Part shown: positions 2,532-20,248 of the stretch, one piece after another | How the letters are laid out: every line of letters begins with the position of its first letter | How positions within the stretch are numbered: the stretch's first letter is position 1 | Source of the DNA: Bdellovibrionota bacterium | Lineage (GTDB): Bacteria > Bdellovibrionota_C > UBA2361 > JAFLCA01 | Assembly (NCBI GenBank): GCA_044347745.1 | Contig: JBIKUD010000010.1 | Span: forward strand, 11,741-75,740 | Reading direction: 5' to 3' | DNA length: 64,000 nt | Made by a program: the position numbers and the translations under genes | The notes under the pieces: model-generated | Databases searched by the model: none | Told to the model about the DNA's origin: nothing | What the model saw: only the letters and a program-made list of their open reading frames with translations

Positions 2532-5048
2532 ATGAAATATAGTTTCGCAAAGCGACTAAACTCGGAGTCTGGAGTAATTATTCCCCTGGCGGCGGTAGTA
2601 GCCCTCTCCGTATTTGTGGTTCTTTCTATTTTAGGTATCGACTCGGCCCTTGTGCATTACAAATCAGCACAACTTCGAAAAGAAGCTACTACAATCTGTG
2701 ATGCAATTATTGAGAAAGCGCCAGTACAACGCGCAGCTAGCTTAGCGTTTATGCGCCAGGTGAACAATCTCGACACCACCCTGGCCCCCCAAGGAGTAAG
2801 ACTAGAACGGGCGCGACTTATTATGCCCACCATGCCCAACATCTTTGTTCTTCCTAGTGGATACCGCACAACGTCGATGGACAACGATTACAGCGCTTCC
2901 CCACCCCACCTAACGGGTGCACAAAGTATGTGCTTAAACACGCTTCTTGGGGCCGAGGGGCCCTGTAACAACGGCACTTTTTGCAGCAGCCCTGACCGCG
3001 ACTTTGGGTCCTTTTTGCGCTGCGTCATTCAAGGAGATGTGTATTACGGAAATAGTCGCAACGTGGGGCCAGGTGTGAACTCTGATTTTTACCCAGCTGG
3101 CATGATGCATAATTTATCTCATGCCGGAAACATGGCTATTTGCGAGTTAGAGGCCAGTATCGCTTCAAGCCTTATCCCCGGAGTAAGACGAGCTATAAAG
3201 GGTGTTGCTGGTTTTCGCAGCCCTGCGGTGGGTTATTTTGATTCCCGCACCACCGATAACTGGGGTTTTCCAAGGGGTGTGCCCTATCCCGGACTGAGTG
3301 TTGCTGTTGCGCCGCATATGACTACCTGGCGAGATGCTTCTCCGCTAGATGCTCGCTTTCAATTTCGTAATTCCCCTGCAATTTTGAATCAAACAAGATA
3401 CGACCCGCTTGCGCCGAGCTGGAATTTTAATCCCAATTTTGCGGACTGTAGTTTATCAGCTTCATCTAGTCCGTCTGCCTGTAACGCAACTCCTGTTGGG
3501 CTATTTGGTGGCACTTTTGCTGGCATTGGAGCGCCCCAAAATTTCAATTCAGTTCCCGGACCAACAGGCAGCAATTTACAAGAGGCGCGCCTTGCTTGTG
3601 GAAACTTAGCCACCTTAGCTCGAAATGTATTTACGACTACCATTTTGGAACTTGCTGCCCGCCATGGCATGTTTAGAAATTTTACCGAGTTACTGCTGGT
3701 GGGAACCCAACACAGGAATGTCTCAGCGCAAAATCAAATATCGCCAAACTCAAACTTTCCTGTGCAAATTACGGCTTTGGGTGAAGATCTTACGGAGCGA
3801 GCTTATACGGTGCCGTATGTAAGTTATTTTTCGGGGAACAGCTCTTCCTCAATTCCAGGGTTTATCTTTGACGACATTGATGGGAGCTCAAACGGTTGGG
3901 TTGATCCATTCACGAGCGGATCTCCAGATATTCAAACCAACCACGCCTGGCTTTCTAGCCAACTGGCTTTTTGCTACCACCTGTATCGAGACACCCAAGC
4001 TTTTACGCGTTTTCCTGTCTCTCCGTTTGATTCAGCAAATTTAGACTTCGAAGATTCTGCTGCATTTTCACCGCTCGACACTCCCGAAAGGTTGAGACCG
4101 AGCGCATACGCTTCCAGTGATCCCTGGGTTCAAGCCTGTCCTTGGGAAAACCTGGCAAGTCCACTAACCTGTACACCCCCCCCTGGCACCTCCTCAAGAA
4201 AGTTACGAGCTCCAGAAATCACCAGCATGCTTGGCAGCATTCAAAACTGTCCGTATCCCATGCTTGGAGCGTATGGAGCTAACTGCGATAAATCAACTGC
4301 GAAAACATTTAGCGACAATGTCGCCAGCGCCTCAACTGCAACTTTAGATTTGCGCCCAGATTTAGTGGGGCTTGTAAAATACCTTACGCGAGCACCCTTA
4401 GGCACCTCAGTGTTTCCAGCTCTGGCTTCTCCTGGAATATTTCCATATTCAGGCCTTAATCCGACTTTCAATCAGCCATTTGGTGCTACCAACGCCAACC
4501 CCCGGCGTTACGTAGAAGCGGAGCAGATGGACTCAGATGGTCGGTCTTCAACTAGTTTGTTGCTGGTTACCCATCAACGCATAAATGGAAGTCTTGGAGC
4601 TTGTAATTGCTCTGCCCCAACGTCTGGGGACGAAGTTTGCAACCTACGATGCTTAGTAGAACAAGGCATGCGAACCCGCAGCGTAGACGGGCGCCGCGTG
4701 CGCAGACCAATTACCATAGCCTATTTTCCAACTACCGCAGCCGACGCCAGCGACGCAGCCATAACTAATTTAGCTGCAGCGTTTCAAGCAACAGTTTCTG
4801 CTTCAAAACCAGAAGATGCGAGTGTGCTGGTGTTTAGTCCCAGGGCCTTGGCAAATTCAGATACAACTTTTGAGGGCGATCTTGTAGCTGCCTGCTCTGG
4901 CGCTGCCCCTAGCTATGACTCAGCTTGTTCATTCCAGTATTATTGGACATATATTTTATCAGAACCAAATTCCTCGCTGCTCTCAATTGTAAATCAAGCA
5001 AGCTCAGTGTTTAACTCTCGGCTTACCCAGACCGGGGTCTTATATTAG
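2532..5048 (+). CDS. TadG-like large Flp-pilus pseudopilin / assembly protein (838 aa)
   Basis: N-terminus ESGVIIPLAAVVALSVFVVLSILGIDSA resembles the TadE/G-like 'Tad' N-terminal domain. The rest is a large Ser/Asn/Cys-rich extracellular-looking region. It sits between the TadE-like genes and the Flp pilin. Confidence 0.6.
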   Translation: MKYSFAKRLNSESGVIIPLAAVVALSVFVVLSILGIDSALVHYKSAQLRKEATTICDAIIEKAPVQRAASLAFMRQVNNLDTTLAPQGVRLERARLIMPTMPNIFVLPSGYRTTSMDNDYSASPPHLTGAQSMCLNTLLGAEGPCNNGTFCSSPDRDFGSFLRCVIQGDVYYGNSRNVGPGVNSDFYPAGMMHNLSHAGNMAICELEASIASSLIPGVRRAIKGVAGFRSPAVGYFDSRTTDNWGFPRGVPYPGLSVAVAPHMTTWRDASPLDARFQFRNSPAILNQTRYDPLAPSWNFNPNFADCSLSASSSPSACNATPVGLFGGTFAGIGAPQNFNSVPGPTGSNLQEARLACGNLATLARNVFTTTILELAARHGMFRNFTELLLVGTQHRNVSAQNQISPNSNFPVQITALGEDLTERAYTVPYVSYFSGNSSSSIPGFIFDDIDGSSNGWVDPFTSGSPDIQTNHAWLSSQLAFCYHLYRDTQAFTRFPVSPFDSANLDFEDSAAFSPLDTPERLRPSAYASSDPWVQACPWENLASPLTCTPPPGTSSRKLRAPEITSMLGSIQNCPYPMLGAYGANCDKSTAKTFSDNVASASTATLDLRPDLVGLVKYLTRAPLGTSVFPALASPGIFPYSGLNPTFNQPFGATNANPRRYVEAEQMDSDGRSSTSLLLVTHQRINGSLGACNCSAPTSGDEVCNLRCLVEQGMRTRSVDGRRVRRPITIAYFPTTAADASDAAITNLAAAFQATVSASKPEDASVLVFSPRALANSDTTFEGDLVAACSGAAPSYDSACSFQYYWTYILSEPNSSLLSIVNQASSVFNSRLTQTGVLY

Positions 5049-5057
5049 AGGCTCCTT

Positions 5058-5282
5058 ATGTTTATATTCCTAAAGTATAAGCCTCATTCAGAAACTGGCG
5101 CGTCGCTTACTGAATACGTTATTACCCTCGCCATTTTGCTTGTGGTGTTTCTTGTTGGTGGGTTGATTATTGAAAGAGCAGCTACCACTCGCGGTGATTT
5201 ATCAATGGGCGTTGGAGCTAGACCAGTGGCTTGTGATACGAGAACGCCGCTGGGGGCAATTGGGGGAGATGCGTGTAAATAA
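5058..5282 (+). CDS. flp: Flp-family type IVb pilin (74 aa prepilin)
   Basis: Leader MFIFLKYKPHSETG followed by ASLTEYVITLAILLVVFLVGG matches the Flp G/xxxxEY cleavage motif plus a hydrophobic helix. A GAGG ribosome-binding site lies about 7 nt upstream. Two C-terminal Cys residues. Confidence 0.7.
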   Translation: MFIFLKYKPHSETGASLTEYVITLAILLVVFLVGGLIIERAATTRGDLSMGVGARPVACDTRTPLGAIGGDACK

Positions 5283-5344
5283 AGCCGGGGGTCAGGGTTC
5301 GGATTGGAAAATGGGCCGACCGAGGACATGGTAACCGACTAACG

Positions 5345-5370
5345 GGTGTTCAGAATACAGGTCAACTGAA
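5345..5370. repeat. left copy of a 26 bp direct repeat flanking the four-helix-bundle gene pair
   Basis: ggtgttcagaatacaggtcaactgaa matches 6176-6201 (ggtgtacagaatacaggccaactgaa) at 24 of 26 positions in the same orientation. Confidence 0.7.
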
Positions 5371-5418
5371 AACGGGAACAGAAAACTGGAACTGCTCTTC
5401 AGAAAAAGAATGCGGGCC

Positions 5419-5724
5419 TCAGCCCGTACTTTTAATAAGCTTGTATACATGAGCGCCGAGACAGTCTAGCTTCTGCCAAGCCTGACTGCCTTCTTGCTCT
5501 GCCAAGATGAGTATTGCCTCACATTCGCGTAGGCTTCCCATTGCGATATCGTAGTATCGCCGCTTCTCCGCCATAGATCTTTTGCCGCTGCCCTCTCCTA
5601 AGTTCAGCACCACTGAAGCTGAGGCTCGGTTTAGCTGGTCCCTCAGGTGCCGTGGTAGGCATAGGGTTTTGCACAGGCGGTAAAATTCGACGCCGTGATT
5701 TAAAGTTCGAAAATTCTTTATCAT
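5419..5724 (-). CDS. four-helix-bundle protein (Avd / 23S-rRNA-intervening-sequence protein family), paralogue 1
   Basis: MIKNFRTLNHGVEFYRLCK..LNRASASVVLNLGEGSGKRS..AMGSLRECEAIL fits the four-helix-bundle family pattern (..NIAEG..R.S..F..A.GS..E). The listed ORF runs on to 5910 only because of the palindromic symmetry. I place the start at the ATG at 5724. Confidence 0.7.
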   Translation of the reverse strand: MIKNFRTLNHGVEFYRLCKTLCLPRHLRDQLNRASASVVLNLGEGSGKRSMAEKRRYYDIAMGSLRECEAILILAEQEGSQAWQKLDCLGAHVYKLIKSTG

Positions 5725-5730
5725 GATTAA

Positions 5731-5799
5731 GGCCCTCCGTTTGGAAAAAAAAGCAGTACCCACTCGGGTGAGTACTTTTTTTCTTCCAAACGGAGGGCC
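5731..5799. promoter_or_regulatory. 69 bp imperfect palindrome between the divergent four-helix-bundle genes
   Basis: GGCCCTCCGTTTGGAA(A8)GCAGTACCC..GGGTGAGTAC(T7)CTTCCAAACGGAGGGCC. The outer 16 bp arms are perfect. It sits in the 80 bp shared 5' region and is the symmetry centre of an inverted duplication about 700 bp long. Confidence 0.75.
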
Positions 5800-5804
5800 T
5801 ACAT

Positions 5805-6104
5805 ATGATGAATTTTCGAACTTATAAACTAGCGGTCGAGTTTTACCGCCGAACGCAAAACCTATGCCTAGCCCGGCATTTAAAAGACCAGCTAAACCGA
5901 GCAGCAGCATCGGTAGCTTTAAACTTAGCGGAGGGGCACGGCAGAAAGTCTATGGCAGATAGAAAGCGATTCTTCCAGATGGCAATGGGAAGCCTACGCG
6001 AGTGCCAGGCCATACTTGAGCTTGGAGCAAGTGGCAGCCAGCTTGTAGCAGAAGCCGACTGCTTGGCAGCTCATCTTTATAAGTTATTAAAGTATCGGGG
6101 CTAA
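5805..6104 (+). CDS. four-helix-bundle protein (Avd / 23S-rRNA-IVS protein family), paralogue 2
   Basis: MMNFRTYKLAVEFYRRTQNLCLARHLKDQLNRAAASVALNLAEGHGRKSMADRKRF..AMGSLRECQAIL is about 60% identical to the minus-strand paralogue, and also similar at DNA level in inverted orientation. Confidence 0.7.
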   Translation: MMNFRTYKLAVEFYRRTQNLCLARHLKDQLNRAAASVALNLAEGHGRKSMADRKRFFQMAMGSLRECQAILELGASGSQLVAEADCLAAHLYKLLKYRG

Positions 6105-6175
6105 GCGCCCCTTATTTCTCAGGAGCTGGAAACAGGTTTCTGAAACTGCAGCAGGTCACAGAAAACGGACCAACT

Positions 6176-6201
6176 GGTGTACAGAATACAGGCCAACTGA
6201 A
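6176..6201. repeat. right copy of the 26 bp direct repeat
   Basis: See 5345-5370. It lies between the second four-helix-bundle gene and the ftsY stop. Confidence 0.7.
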
Positions 6202-6227
6202 GCCTCAGACTAGGCCGCCCACCCCGT

Positions 6228-7772
6228 TTAAAGATACGGCTGCGTATCCCGTCTCTTCCTTCGCCTCGTCTCAGCATGAGCCGAAGCACTTGCGTCAATA
6301 TGTGCTGAACCTTGCCCATCGGCCGAGGTATCAAATAGTGCTTCAACAAAATCTCTTGCCACAAATGGCCGTAAATCTTGAGGCCCTTCTCCCACTCCGA
6401 TATAGCGCACGGGAAGCCCAAGTTCTTCCTTAATTGCCACCACGATGCCGCCTTTGGGTGTTCCATCAAGTTTGGTGACAATTAAACCAGACAATTTTGT
6501 TGCCTCGTTAAACTCGCGTGCTTGCTGCAACGCATTCTGGCCCGTGGCTCCATCAACCACCAAAATGGCTTCGTGTGGCGCTCCAGCAATATGTTTACTT
6601 ACCATGCTGCTAACGCCTTCAAGCTCCTGCATCAAATTTGTTTTAGTATGCAAGCGGCCTGCTGTATCAATTAATACCACATCCATTTGCAGCTCTTTGG
6701 CTTTGTTCATGCCCTCAAACACCACTGTTTGCGGCTTGGCATTGGGTGCGCCCGATACAACGGGCACATCAATGCGTTTACCCCACTCAACAAGCTGATC
6801 AACGGCAGCGGCTCTAAATGTGTCAGCAGCGACCAATAAAACTCTGGCCCCGGCTGCTTTCCACATATGTGCGAGCTTAGCGGTGGTGGTTGTTTTACCC
6901 ACTCCATTCACACCTACTACTAATACAACCAAAGGATCTGCACCGCGTTTTTTAGGCAAAATGGCCGCGTCCTGGTGGGCATTTTTCTCTAAAATTGAAA
7001 GCACTTTCATTTTAAGCACTGCGAGCAACCGTGGCTCATCCACTGCTGCACCAGAGGCAACTTCTGCCTTTAATTCTTCAAGCAGCGCCTGGCTTGTTTT
7101 TACGCCTAAGTCGCTACTCACAAGCAAAGCCTCAAGCTCTGCCAAAGTCTGAGGCTCTATTTGAGTTTTGCCACCAAAAAGCGAACGAATTTTTTCAAAT
7201 AAACCCAGTCGAGATTTTACAAGTCTTTTACTTAAAGATTCCGGCTCTACCTCTGGTTGGCTTAAGAGCTGGGCTGCTGGGGAAAAAGTTGGCGCTGGGG
7301 TTACGGGTTCAGCAGCTAGACTGGGTTCAGCAGTCTCTGGGGCATCAAACGTCTGAGGAGCAGCAGAAACTAAACTAGCAGCATCAACAAAACCATCAGC
7401 ATCACCACTGCCGACCGCGCCAAGCTGTTTAAGCATGGCTCGGGCTTCAGCGAGCTCTTGCTTGACATAGCCAACTTCGCCTTTAAAAAGTTCAAGTGCG
7501 CGCGCAGTTTCGGTACGCGCTTCGTTAAACTGCATCTCTAGGCGCTCAACTCGGCCACCTATATTATCGTAACGTTCAAATGCCCCCGCTTTCCCAGCCT
7601 CGCGTTTTGGGCCACGAAATAATGCAATCAAACCAAGCGTCAACGCCAAAAGTGACATCAGTAATAGAGTGACCACCACATCGGCAACCGCATTACCCGT
7701 GCCAAACTGCTTAGAGAGCTCGGTTGCATATTGCAAAAACGAGGAGGTAGTTGTTTGAAAATCCATGGGCAT
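6228..7772 (-). CDS. ftsY: signal recognition particle receptor FtsY
   Basis: GVNGVGKTTTTAKLA, DTAGR and TKLDGTPKGG motifs of the SRP GTPase family. N-terminal TM anchor plus an acidic A-domain. Located downstream of smc, a common linkage. Confidence 0.9.
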   Translation of the reverse strand: MPMDFQTTTSSFLQYATELSKQFGTGNAVADVVVTLLLMSLLALTLGLIALFRGPKREAGKAGAFERYDNIGGRVERLEMQFNEARTETARALELFKGEVGYVKQELAEARAMLKQLGAVGSGDADGFVDAASLVSAAPQTFDAPETAEPSLAAEPVTPAPTFSPAAQLLSQPEVEPESLSKRLVKSRLGLFEKIRSLFGGKTQIEPQTLAELEALLVSSDLGVKTSQALLEELKAEVASGAAVDEPRLLAVLKMKVLSILEKNAHQDAAILPKKRGADPLVVLVVGVNGVGKTTTTAKLAHMWKAAGARVLLVAADTFRAAAVDQLVEWGKRIDVPVVSGAPNAKPQTVVFEGMNKAKELQMDVVLIDTAGRLHTKTNLMQELEGVSSMVSKHIAGAPHEAILVVDGATGQNALQQAREFNEATKLSGLIVTKLDGTPKGGIVVAIKEELGLPVRYIGVGEGPQDLRPFVARDFVEALFDTSADGQGSAHIDASASAHAETRRRKRRDTQPYL

Positions 7773-20024: not shown

Positions 20025-20248
20025 TCTAGAAGACATCTCATAATTCGTATATTTGAGATGCGTTCTAGAAACCATCTCATAGTTGGTAAATTTGAGATGG
20101 TTTCTAGGCGCGCCAAGGATGGCGTGCTCGGCGACCGAGCTTGTGAGGAAGCCGGTGCGACGCAAGGACGGGGCTTTTATGGGGTCCCCGTCCGAGCTTG
20201 GAGCACTCTCATAAATGCCAAGGATGGCATTTATGAGATGAGTTCTAG
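20025..20248. repeat. array of related hairpin-forming palindromic repeats (REP/MITE-like) in the prmA-downstream intergenic region
   Basis: TCTAGA..CATCTCA..TGAGATG..TCTAGA (20025-20069). A perfect 15 bp stem ctagaaaccatctca/tgagatggtttctag (20065-20107). GC hairpin ggacgggg/ccccgtcc (20166-20193). A perfect 13 bp palindrome ctcataaatgcca-agga-tggcatttatgag (20208-20237). The motifs gccaaggatggc and ccgagcttg each recur twice. Confidence 0.7.

Follow-up and report, generated by a model that had tools for sequence, protein, structure and literature searches.

PF05635 is a large family with a wide distribution, and one of its members is Avd, the cofactor of diversity-generating retroelements (DGRs). 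Avd (PDB 4DWL, 8UB7) is a small, basic four-helix bundle that assembles as a pentamer. Stand-alone proteins of the TIGR02436 type, such as XCC0516 (2GSC) and BT_0352 (2RLD), are 115 to 130 aa long, and these two crystal entries contain five chains each. Leaders that sequester the Shine-Dalgarno sequence (SD), as in type I toxin mRNAs and RNase III-processed phage leaders, are activated by processing. The PF05635 family was first found inside 23S rRNA intervening sequences (IVS), whose long stems are cut by RNase III (bioRxiv 10.1101/2024.02.27.582315). The IVS ORFs, including those for S23p of Leptospira and Coxiella (PF05635, '23S_rRNA_IVP'), occur singly within helix 25 or 45 of the 23S rRNA, are enclosed by a long stable stem and have no recognisable promoter of their own, and their sporadic distribution suggests horizontal spread (bioRxiv 10.1101/2024.02.27.582315). 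STRR or TAACTGA heptamer arrays, which are intergenic and consist of repeat units 6-8 nt in length built around a CAG/CTG core, have been described in Cyanobacteria, Bacteroidetes and Beggiatoaceae; their presence or absence varies among close relatives, and no connection with PF05635 was drawn (PMC4679880).

The window analysed here, a 64-kb stretch of Bdellovibrionota DNA, contains a cassette (W, 5333..6201) in which two PF05635/TIGR02436 genes, L and R, diverge from a central palindrome and are flanked by an array on either side. Its limits are given by the terminal direct repeats, by the end of homology with a second copy (L093) at W 6199 and by the absence of the entire segment from the empty sites of relatives. 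Gene L (5419..5724, minus strand) encodes a protein of 101 aa with a pI of 9.4 and gene R (5805..6104, plus strand) one of 99 aa with a pI of 9.9, and they are the only ORFs inside the element. Both proteins matched PF05635 (E-values of 2.6e-15 for L and 4.3e-17 for R; 57 and 62.7 bits vs a cut-off of 33.8) and TIGR02436 (57.7 and 65.6 bits vs a cut-off of 24) above the curated cut-offs, in agreement with their first assignment to the four-helix-bundle, 23S rRNA intervening-sequence family. The two proteins share 59% identity (BLASTP, E 7e-43), and positions 5510-5721 and 5805-6016 form a DNA inverted repeat of 212 nt with 74% complementarity, the sole inverted repeat of at least 45 nt in the window. 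The initial annotation had described two genes of about 100 aa, about 60% identical and in inverted orientation, around a palindrome and between direct repeats; all these features were recovered, with coordinates that were exact or off by 1-2 nt. Each gene ends in a terminator-like GC hairpin with a T-rich tail, identified by a terminator scan at 5413..5426 for L (minus strand, with a plus-strand score also at 5411-5428) and at 6097..6111 for R (plus strand). The neighbours are the FtsY gene and a pilin-like operon, in the synteny SMC-FtsY-pilin; one neighbouring protein of 838 aa had no Pfam match.

W resembles the rRNA IVS in its protein family, in the association of the genes with a long stable stem, in the lack of a recognisable promoter of their own and in its sporadic distribution. 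It differs from them in lying outside an rRNA gene, next to FtsY and pilin-like genes, in having two genes instead of one, and in the position of the stem, which separates the genes and includes their RBSs, whereas the IVS stem encloses the ORF. The stand-alone TIGR02436 proteins are the best sequence and structure matches to the proteins of W, but the latter are only about 100 aa long and, unlike the former, are encoded head to head with a common SD-containing palindrome. No description of such a pair was found in the literature searched.

The central palindrome (5730..5800) constitutes the shared leader of the two genes. Its arms (5730-5752 and 5778-5800) are 23 nt long and 96% complementary, with the outer 17 bp perfect. 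Each arm holds the SD of one gene and hence the exact complement of the SD of the other: GGAGGG of gene R is located at 5792-5797 on the plus strand, and the SD of gene L at 5738-5733 on the minus strand. The leader RNA was predicted to fold with -45.8 kcal/mol on the plus strand and -52.3 kcal/mol on the minus strand (z of -8 and -9.5, respectively), and no shuffled sequence equalled either value. Among 21 leaders of the subfamily, the SD was paired to CUCC in 20, and stem positions 5-22 were at least 86% paired, with 3-5 pair types per position. In head-to-head pairs such covariation arises automatically wherever recombination keeps the arms of a DNA palindrome alike, and information therefore comes only from the small number of single-gene loci. 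The leaders of three of these (L011, L013 and L019) had the same SD-containing hairpin despite having no inverted gene copy; these loci could be remnants of pairs. The distance from the stem end to the start codon was always 5-13 nt and the SD was always inside the stem, single-gene loci included.

The centre of the palindrome contains an inner stem-loop (5755..5776) between an A-run (5745-5752) and a T-run (5777-5783), resembling a bidirectional intrinsic terminator with a 9-bp stem and T8 on the minus strand and a 5-bp stem and T7 on the plus strand. The 1.5 kb from 5000 to 6500 contained 8 terminator-like sites vs 1.7 expected, some of them at the two gene ends and, on either strand, at the centre. 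This A-run/T-run appearance was also present in the copies of UBA2409, L012, L014, L016 and L021 and absent from L006/L007, L013, L018 and L051. A promoter scan found no sigma-70-like promoter in 5000-6500, and only weak resemblances to sigma-70 or sigma-54 promoters were seen by eye in the palindrome and on the antisense strand of the initial 100 nt of L and R.

W is, with moderate confidence, best read as a hairpin-locked copy of a dispersed, non-autonomous two-gene cassette of the Bdellovibrionota/Oligoflexia, built from the rRNA-intervening-sequence protein family. We infer from the sequence that a transcript crossing the palindrome would form a very stable hairpin in which its own SD is buried, and that the fold of W would also offer an inner stem followed by a U-run, similar to an intrinsic terminator in both directions, so that the genes would be insulated and their translation locked by default. 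The lock would be released when the long stem is cleaved or opened. By analogy with the rRNA intervening sequences, RNase III would be the likeliest agent, since it cuts the long stems of those that carry the founding members of the family. As no promoter is recognisable, the genes probably rely on transcription that enters the cassette from its surroundings or starts within the partner gene. In SD-sequestering leaders, too, the SD is held in a highly stable stem by a complementary sequence upstream of it, and translation in W should likewise be blocked as long as the stem remains intact and closed; unlike in those leaders, one palindrome would serve two divergent genes simultaneously. Finally, the two arms may recombine with each other, which would keep the first ~34 codons alike and allow the central loop to flip. 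Within pairs, DNA identity was ~83% over codons 1-34 and 53-61% over codons 35-51, a segment that is type-specific across loci.

The head-to-head pair around a palindrome was found at every related Bdellovibrionota genome locus with enough flanking sequence and at most metagenome loci. All six genome loci with both sides available (L003-L008, from two MAGs) carried the pair with a palindromic spacer of 73-103 nt, and the UBA2409 MAG contained four copies of the cassette. The pair and palindrome were also present in the metagenome loci L010, L012, L014, L016, L018, L021, L025 and L051, and in L094-L096. Across loci the palindrome measured 70-105 bp, and GC hairpins equivalent to those of W were located at the ends of both genes. 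Among relatives that retain the SMC-FtsY-pilin synteny, one with 76% FtsY identity had the pair between SMC and FtsY and not after FtsY. L090 (75%) showed an empty site of 194 nt where W holds the cassette, on a contig without its SMC-FtsY side, while in L092 (62%) both the SMC-FtsY and the post-FtsY sites were empty. These empty sites had no similarity to the repeats or arrays. They did not define the insertion point at the base level, because intergenic sequence could not be aligned with that of relatives at 62-76%. The copy in L093 was 95.7% identical over 513 nt aligned and was located beside unrelated genes; its core was ~99% identical to that of W, and its array was collinear at ~70%, a difference that gene conversion might account for if W and L093 belong to one genome. 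Among paralogous copies, homology was confined between the two gene-end hairpins, and the outer ends were not conserved. These results show that the cassette is multi-copy within genomes and that its intergenic site differs among relatives, the corresponding sites being empty in others. The initial proposal of an inserted cassette-like module, as opposed to an ordinary gene pair, is thus borne out by the recurrence of the layout at many unrelated loci and by its variable presence and site. A genome-wide REP-like repeat, which had been named as the competing possibility, does not fit: neither the genes nor the palindrome nor the direct repeat recurred elsewhere in the 64-kb window, and in all other loci the palindrome was tied to these genes.

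The mobility of the cassette could also be explained if the palindrome acts as DNA, its hairpin or cruciform being a recombination or replication-priming site for an enzyme supplied in trans and the flanking repeats being target duplications or att-like sequences. We regard this as possible but improbable. The variation of cassette sites among relatives would be expected, as would the long duplications of host DNA that flank L005 (101-117 nt, covering the last part of one gene and the first part of the following one) and L004 (24-47 nt). Moreover, the central loops of L003 and L005, two paralogous copies in one genome, are exact reverse complements of each other, which lends some support to the earlier suggestion of an inversion hotspot at the palindrome. 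Contigs repeatedly break at the inverted repeat, and folding showed no sense-strand bias: the antisense strand folded better in 5/6 single-gene relatives, while in tRNA-linked relatives the sense strand was more stable in only 16/28 (p = 0.23). The strand test therefore does not favour a sense-RNA structure, being not significant and, in the single-gene loci, pointing the opposite way, which counts against the hairpin-locked reading. However, the palindrome is central and carries both SDs, which also contradicts its previous interpretation as the terminal structure of a mobile cassette, and the outer ends of paralogous copies have no conserved sequence. Flanking direct repeats were significant in only 4/13 complete copies, with lengths of 24-117 nt. 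A Pfam scan of 30 of the 40 window ORFs of at least 200 aa found no reverse transcriptase (RT), transposase, integrase or HUH enzyme. The constant position of the stem, 5-13 nt before the start codon and including the SD even in single-gene loci, would be needless for a pure DNA site. An insertion sequence or MITE fits no better, as there are neither conserved terminal inverted repeats nor a short target duplication of fixed length, and no transposase was found in the element or in the 30 window ORFs scanned.

As for the direct repeats, the 26-mer at 5345-5370 has exactly two occurrences in the window, against 0 expected in shuffles, and is part of a direct repeat of 38 nt (5333..5370, plus strand, and 6164-6201; 33/38 identity); local alignment of the two flanks of W gave a z of 15 vs shuffles. 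Both 38-nt copies sit inside degenerate 7-8 nt periodic arrays. The left array (5346..5405, TTnnCnG type in the minus-strand reading) was the sole site in 64 kb to pass a motif-density scan, and TRF reported a period of 13 x 2.2 at 5364-5392; the right array (6112..6201, minus strand), collinear with that of L093, has the right repeat copy as its final 38 nt. The presence of the flanking repeats is therefore confirmed, but not their interpretation as a simple bracketing target duplication, since the right copy is carried by L093 and both copies lie within family-linked arrays. According to the hairpin-locked cassette reading, the 38-nt repeats would be part of arrays that travel with the cassette, and they may mark its mode of insertion or duplication. 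Sister loci contained perfect arrays (L095, TTCTCAG/A x13; L096, TCTGTCC x11; L006, ATTCAGTC x9). Most copies had a short-period array at one end, while W and L007 had arrays on both sides. A fixed orientation of the array relative to the L and R types was considered and rejected, as W shows the reverse of the orientation seen in most loci, which might result from recombination between the arms.

The W arrays resemble STRR arrays in their intergenic position, in units of 6-8 nt that have a CAG/CTG core and in a presence that varies among relatives; CAACTGA occurs twice in W, within the direct repeats. Unlike STRR arrays, those of W are degenerate, measure merely 60-90 nt and were not flagged by a strict fixed-period test. 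Short-period arrays were 42-fold enriched within 200 nt of cassettes, and arrays were strongly enriched beside PF05635 genes in three independent locus sets. The leaders of tRNA-linked relatives had exactly five octamers per arm in 45/60 loci, and one cyanobacterial plasmid gene was preceded by five heptamers directly 5' of its ATG. This association between arrays and PF05635, observed in the loci analysed here, is new to us. It is compatible with a speculative reading, to which we assign a low probability, in which PF05635 proteins and 6-8 nt arrays form one system. The proteins would bind RNA or DNA in single-stranded form at arrays of about five units, as the five chains per crystal entry and the pentameric state of Avd may suggest. 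The gene with its array, with or without a hairpin, would be a minimal unit, selfish or regulatory, that spreads to sites downstream of tRNAs, to rRNA helices and to ordinary intergenic DNA, the twin cassette W being its Bdellovibrionota form. If true, this would provide a cause for the long-unexplained STRR/TAACTGA heptamer arrays of Cyanobacteria and Bacteroidetes. Should the recurrent link of the family to short-period arrays and to tRNA genes be confirmed, it would tie together IVS proteins, heptamer arrays and the orphan genes found next to tRNAs.

Divergent genes on either side of a perfect palindrome are also the classic operator arrangement. L and R could be ordinary divergent regulators or nucleic-acid-binding paralogues that bind the palindrome and regulate their own expression. 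Both proteins are indeed basic, and L and R represent two conserved paralogue types in most loci, which would suit a hetero-oligomer. This explanation is nevertheless unlikely. The stem sequences are wholly different between lineages while the proteins remain similar, which is unlike a protein-specific operator, the arms reach 42 bp and thus far exceed operator length, and no promoter was found in 5000-6500. In addition, the dispersal of multiple copies and the hairpin of the single-gene loci would be left unexplained.

The relationship to Avd, which the initial annotation had pointed out, was examined at the structural level. The AlphaFold2 model of the gene R product, for which the alignment consisted of database homologues, showed four helices with a pLDDT of 92.8. 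Its best structural match in Foldseek was 2GSC (E 1.4e-4, TM 0.75-0.85), followed by 2RLD (E 1.2e-3), while the match with Avd 4DWL was weak (E 0.5, TM 0.65); Avd 4DWL was also absent from the profile-search matches at E <= 0.01. No sequence identical to the gene L product was on record. The proteins of W share with Avd a small, basic four-helix bundle and a broad family, and the proposed Avd/DGR connection appears reduced to a distant fold relationship. The initial annotation had stated that the window lacks an RT, and none was found in the 31 ORFs scanned (including the 30 of at least 200 aa); the precomputed Pfam calls displayed for the look-up loci did not include one either.

It might still be proposed that W is a bacterial SINE-like retro-cassette, in which a transcript of the whole module with a tandem-repeat tail is copied by an RT encoded elsewhere, with the Avd-like proteins as cofactors. 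The variable and sometimes long flank duplications (24-117 nt), the lack of conserved ends, the arrays at one end of most copies (some perfect, as in L095, L096 and L006) and the relationship of the family to a retroelement accessory protein would all agree with it. Given that no RT was found in the window ORFs scanned or in the Pfam calls shown for the look-up loci, that W and L007 have arrays on both sides and that the similarity to Avd is weak (E 0.5), we consider it very unlikely. An orphan DGR remnant, with an Avd gene duplicated after loss of the RT and of the template and variable repeats, is highly improbable and was dropped: apart from the Pfam family shared with Avd-like proteins, there was no RT in the ORFs scanned and no template/variable repeat pair (the only direct repeats of at least 45 nt in the window were S1-domain repeats at 44.3-45.2 kb), the fold is nearer to that of 2GSC and 2RLD, both stand-alone proteins, than to that of Avd, and the cassette recurs in housekeeping contexts with no RT in the Pfam calls shown for the look-up loci. 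A DGR-like adenine bias between the arrays of W and L093 was likewise rejected, since, of the 15 differences counted by eye, 5 fell on an A of W and 4 on an A of L093.

Searches beyond the cassette were also performed. Rfam returned no family at the gathering score in the 64-kb window, and no rRNA or tRNA; for nine related loci, only tRNAs and chance miRNA matches were obtained at E <= 1. No relatives of the cassette were found in 2.9 million viral contigs, and carriage by phages is thus unsupported. The hairpin-locked cassette reading implies that, in one phylum, PF05635 genes would behave as a compact, promoter-less, hairpin-guarded and multi-copy unit that changes position between relatives. 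It also offers testable behaviour for the PF05635 family, namely a translation lock by a shared palindrome, possible activation by RNase III and recombination between arms. The inverted repeat moreover breaks short-read assemblies, and such cassettes mark the ends of MAG contigs: of four independent contigs carrying exactly this cassette, three break off within gene L.

The 5333-6201 region of the window carries two genes of the IVS-protein family in divergent orientation. Gene L (5419-5724, minus strand) encodes a protein of 101 aa and gene R (5805-6104, plus strand) one of 99 aa. Both products are basic (pI 9.9 and 9.4), both match the PF05635 and TIGR02436 profiles, and they share 59% identity. 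At the DNA level the two genes make up a 212-nt inverted repeat (5510-5721 versus 5805-6016, 74% complementary), the sole inverted repeat of at least 45 nt in the 64-kb window. The head-to-head pair described in the initial annotation, as well as the palindrome between its genes, was recovered, with agreeing coordinates, family and identity. An AlphaFold2 model of the R protein consists of four helices (pLDDT 92.8). Structurally it most resembles 2GSC and 2RLD, two stand-alone members of the family, and Avd, the accessory protein of diversity-generating retroelements, is a distant match (E 0.5); a profile search of PDB sequences returned 2GSC only. No reverse transcriptase, transposase or integrase domain was detected in the 30 scanned ORFs out of the 40 of at least 200 aa in the window, in line with the earlier remark on reverse transcriptase, and no template/variable-like repeat was found in the window. 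Neither the genes, the palindrome nor the direct repeat has a second copy elsewhere in the 64 kb. In the literature searched, PF05635 figures as an Avd-like, uncharacterised domain found in the ORFs of IVSs, and we found no description there of head-to-head cassettes of PF05635 genes and nothing linking the family to repeat arrays. The feature, made up of genes from the IVS-protein family, is real and not due to chance, and its description is solid.

The palindrome (arms 5730-5752 and 5778-5800, outer 17 bp perfect) lies in the spacer between L and R and forms the leader of both genes. In the outermost part of its stem, the Shine-Dalgarno sequence GGAG, located 5-13 nt upstream of the start codon in the leaders compared, pairs with CUCC, and it is paired in 20 of 21 leaders. 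In a head-to-head pair, CUCC is the complement of the partner gene's Shine-Dalgarno sequence, and one palindrome therefore serves both genes. The leader RNAs from the two strands fold at -45.8 and -52.3 kcal/mol (z -8 and -9.5), and across the 21 leaders pairing is 86% or higher at each of the stem positions 5-22, with 3-5 different pair types. The leaders of three single genes (L011, L013 and L019) retain a hairpin containing the Shine-Dalgarno sequence, with unrelated stem sequences. These results demonstrated that the leader is structured and that its structure is conserved. Moreover, the inner stem lies between an A-run and a T-run in the window, in the four-cassette MAG UBA2409 and in L012, L014, L016 and L021, where it is scored as a bidirectional intrinsic terminator; this terminator look is absent from the other lineages compared. 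Each gene ends with a GC hairpin, and a promoter scan around the cassette (5000-6500) found no sigma-70-like promoter.

The two genes would thus be insulated by hairpins and their translation locked by the shared palindrome, until the stem is cut or opened. Transcription presumably crosses the palindrome, with occlusion of the Shine-Dalgarno sequence in vivo. RNase III is the obvious candidate for cutting the cassette stem by analogy, since it cuts the long stems of rRNA IVSs carrying this protein family (bioRxiv 10.1101/2024.02.27.582315). Alternatively, the palindrome may act at the DNA level, as a cruciform or recombination site. A strand-asymmetry test of leader folding did not support a structure confined to the sense RNA, and a DNA-level role therefore stays a serious rival to the translational lock.

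A genome pattern scan, using one genome per species, yielded seven loci in three Bdellovibrionota MAGs. Every scan locus with both sides present (L003 to L008) holds a head-to-head pair with a palindromic spacer of 73-103 nt; UBA2409 bears four copies and another MAG two. Pairs are also found at the metagenome loci L010, L012, L014, L016, L018, L021, L025 and L051, the last being GC-rich and more distant. Three further homologues on long contigs (L094, L095 and L096) all proved to be pairs, in housekeeping surroundings (lptD, a bamA-fabZ-lpxA cluster and dsbA). The same subfamily includes the single genes L011, L013, L019 and L023 and one tail-to-tail pair (L015); a search of viral contigs found no member. 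Most of the 162 close homologues sit on contigs shorter than 2.5 kb, and several homologue pairs stem from equally long contigs. The three contigs with the very cassette of the window (L001, L002 and L093) all terminate within gene L, the usual behaviour of assemblers at inverted repeats. At L095 (2135-2413), the left gene is decayed, with disrupted frames and no Pfam match on record, and its partner is intact. Cassette copies can therefore degenerate on one side, a possible route to single-gene loci.

Judged by its FtsY homologues, the organism belongs to Oligoflexia/Bdellovibrionota. The gene order in the window is SMC, FtsY, cassette, a 74-aa pilin-like gene and an 838-aa gene. In the relative P0121 (JGI 3300059473; 76% FtsY identity) it is SMC, pair, FtsY, 72 aa and 824 aa, and the pair thus occupies another intergenic site. 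In L090 (75%) only 194 nt separate FtsY from a 71-aa gene, leaving the site empty, and in L092 (62%) both sites are unfilled; the empty sites resemble neither the repeats nor the arrays of the window. This presence/absence comparison, together with the same architecture at other loci, bears out the inserted cassette proposed in the initial annotation. L093, from another metagenome, has a copy beside pantothenate kinase, biotin ligase and QRPTase genes, aligning to 5687-6199 at 95.7%; the similarity ends at most 2 nt from where the right direct repeat does. A simple target duplication can be dismissed for this repeat, which L093 carries at an unrelated locus; repeat and array are therefore part of a dispersed unit. 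We read the cassette as such a unit, non-autonomous. As counted on the alignment, identity is about 99% in the core and about 70% in the array (~6149 to 6199), which is collinear and without indels. This drop suggests a recent homogenization of the cores in copies that are themselves old and diverged, by gene conversion or core replacement, presupposing that both copies share one genome or gene pool. Cassettes frequently lie between convergent genes, which may simply reflect where insertion does no harm.

As for the neighbours (2532-5282), the 74-aa protein has by eye a Flp-pilin-like N-terminus and the 838-aa protein no Pfam match; the gene pair is conserved in three relatives (72/824, 71/824 and 60/935 aa). 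In P0121, the gap between FtsY and the 72-aa gene, where the window has its cassette, measures 580 nt without a called gene, compared with 194 and 148 nt in the two relatives whose site is empty, and could hold a decayed cassette or solo array.

The 26-bp direct repeats reported earlier occur twice in the window against 0 expected and extend to 38 nt (5333-5370 and 6164-6201, 33/38 identical). Cassettes are adjoined by arrays whose 6-8 nt units share a C-N-G core, perfect in L006 (ATTCAGTC x9), L095 (TTCTCAG/A x13) and L096 (TCTGTCC x11) and degenerate at other loci, including the window. Of the bases lying no more than 200 nt from a cassette, a fixed-period detector flagged 9.2%, versus 0.22% elsewhere. 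Significant flanking direct repeats were found in 4 of 13 complete copies: those of the window (38 nt) and L007 (44 nt) are array-like, that of L004 (24-47 nt) is unique DNA, and that of L005 (101-117 nt) comprises the upstream gene's last 48 nt, intergenic DNA and the downstream gene's first 18 nt. L004 and L005 show that host DNA was duplicated over unusually long, variable lengths, by insertion or later rearrangement. No conserved outer ends were found among paralogous copies. Arrays of heptamers (TAACTGA, STRR) have been reported to be abundant, sporadic in distribution and unexplained (PMC4679880), in a paper that does not mention PF05635. In L015 (150-310 and 1110-1592), the tail-to-tail pair lies within tandem units of 117-129 nt, each made of a hexamer array (CCTGTT/CCCGTT) and a conserved 45-nt segment. 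By eye, the minus strand of each unit could code for a short peptide that is rich in Gly and Thr and begins with MMRGKQT. Elsewhere in the window, a 39-nt tandem repeat (20025-20107; 2.1 copies, 84% identity) occupies the gap between PrmA-like and alcohol-dehydrogenase-like genes.

Within pairs, DNA identity is about 83% at codons 1-34 and 53-61% at codons 35-51. Across loci, codons 35-51 are 75-78% identical between copies of the same type versus 52% between types, so most loci hold two old paralogue types. One bears A-L-S-(V/I)-P-LNLAEG-(Y/R/W)-G plus one extra residue, the other A-S-S-S-I-(V/A)-LNLAEG; the window pair has no first-type signature, and its C-terminal parts still follow the two types. 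The centre-proximal parts of the two types stay alike, and the L003 loop is the exact reverse complement of the L005 loop in the same genome; both are consistent with the arms recombining with each other. A crossover close to the outer ends would also turn the entire core around with respect to its flanks, which may explain why the array polarity in the window is opposite to that of most loci.

Longer, canonical PF05635 genes at metagenome loci (L027 to L089) mostly lie 130-400 nt downstream of a same-strand tRNA gene (28 loci, tRNA-Pro being the commonest; e.g. L036:2256-2500 and L029:2290-2490). The order is fixed: tRNA, short A/T-flanked GC hairpin, long imperfect hairpin, about 20-30 nt and ATG. 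In 45 of 60 loci, the long hairpin has a 3' arm built from exactly five octamers (GCTCnCCT GCGGTCTC CTGyTCnC CTGyTCnC CTGyTCAA). Of the 51 occurrences of CTGCGGTC in 195 kb, 38 are upstream of a PF05635 gene of this type. The element is absent from Rfam 15. The tRNA's last 25 nt are duplicated about 60 nt downstream in L058 (130-260), and L081 (2150-2490) has three tandem copies of the hairpin-leader unit, which is duplicated in L043, L044 and L082. Four cyanobacterial plasmid genes whose annotation reads 'four helix bundle / S23 ribosomal protein' (Nostoc, Calothrix, Geminocystis; L097:637-672, L098:603-632, L099:325-350 and 745-790, L100:343-377) were also inspected, and all four have 4-5 heptamer repeats just before the start codon. 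In L100, TCAGGAG is repeated five times, the last unit 3 nt short of the ATG. In L099, a GGGAAAA array upstream is mirrored by a TTTTCCC array directly after the stop codon, and a potential long stem therefore encloses the gene, much as an rRNA IVS would.
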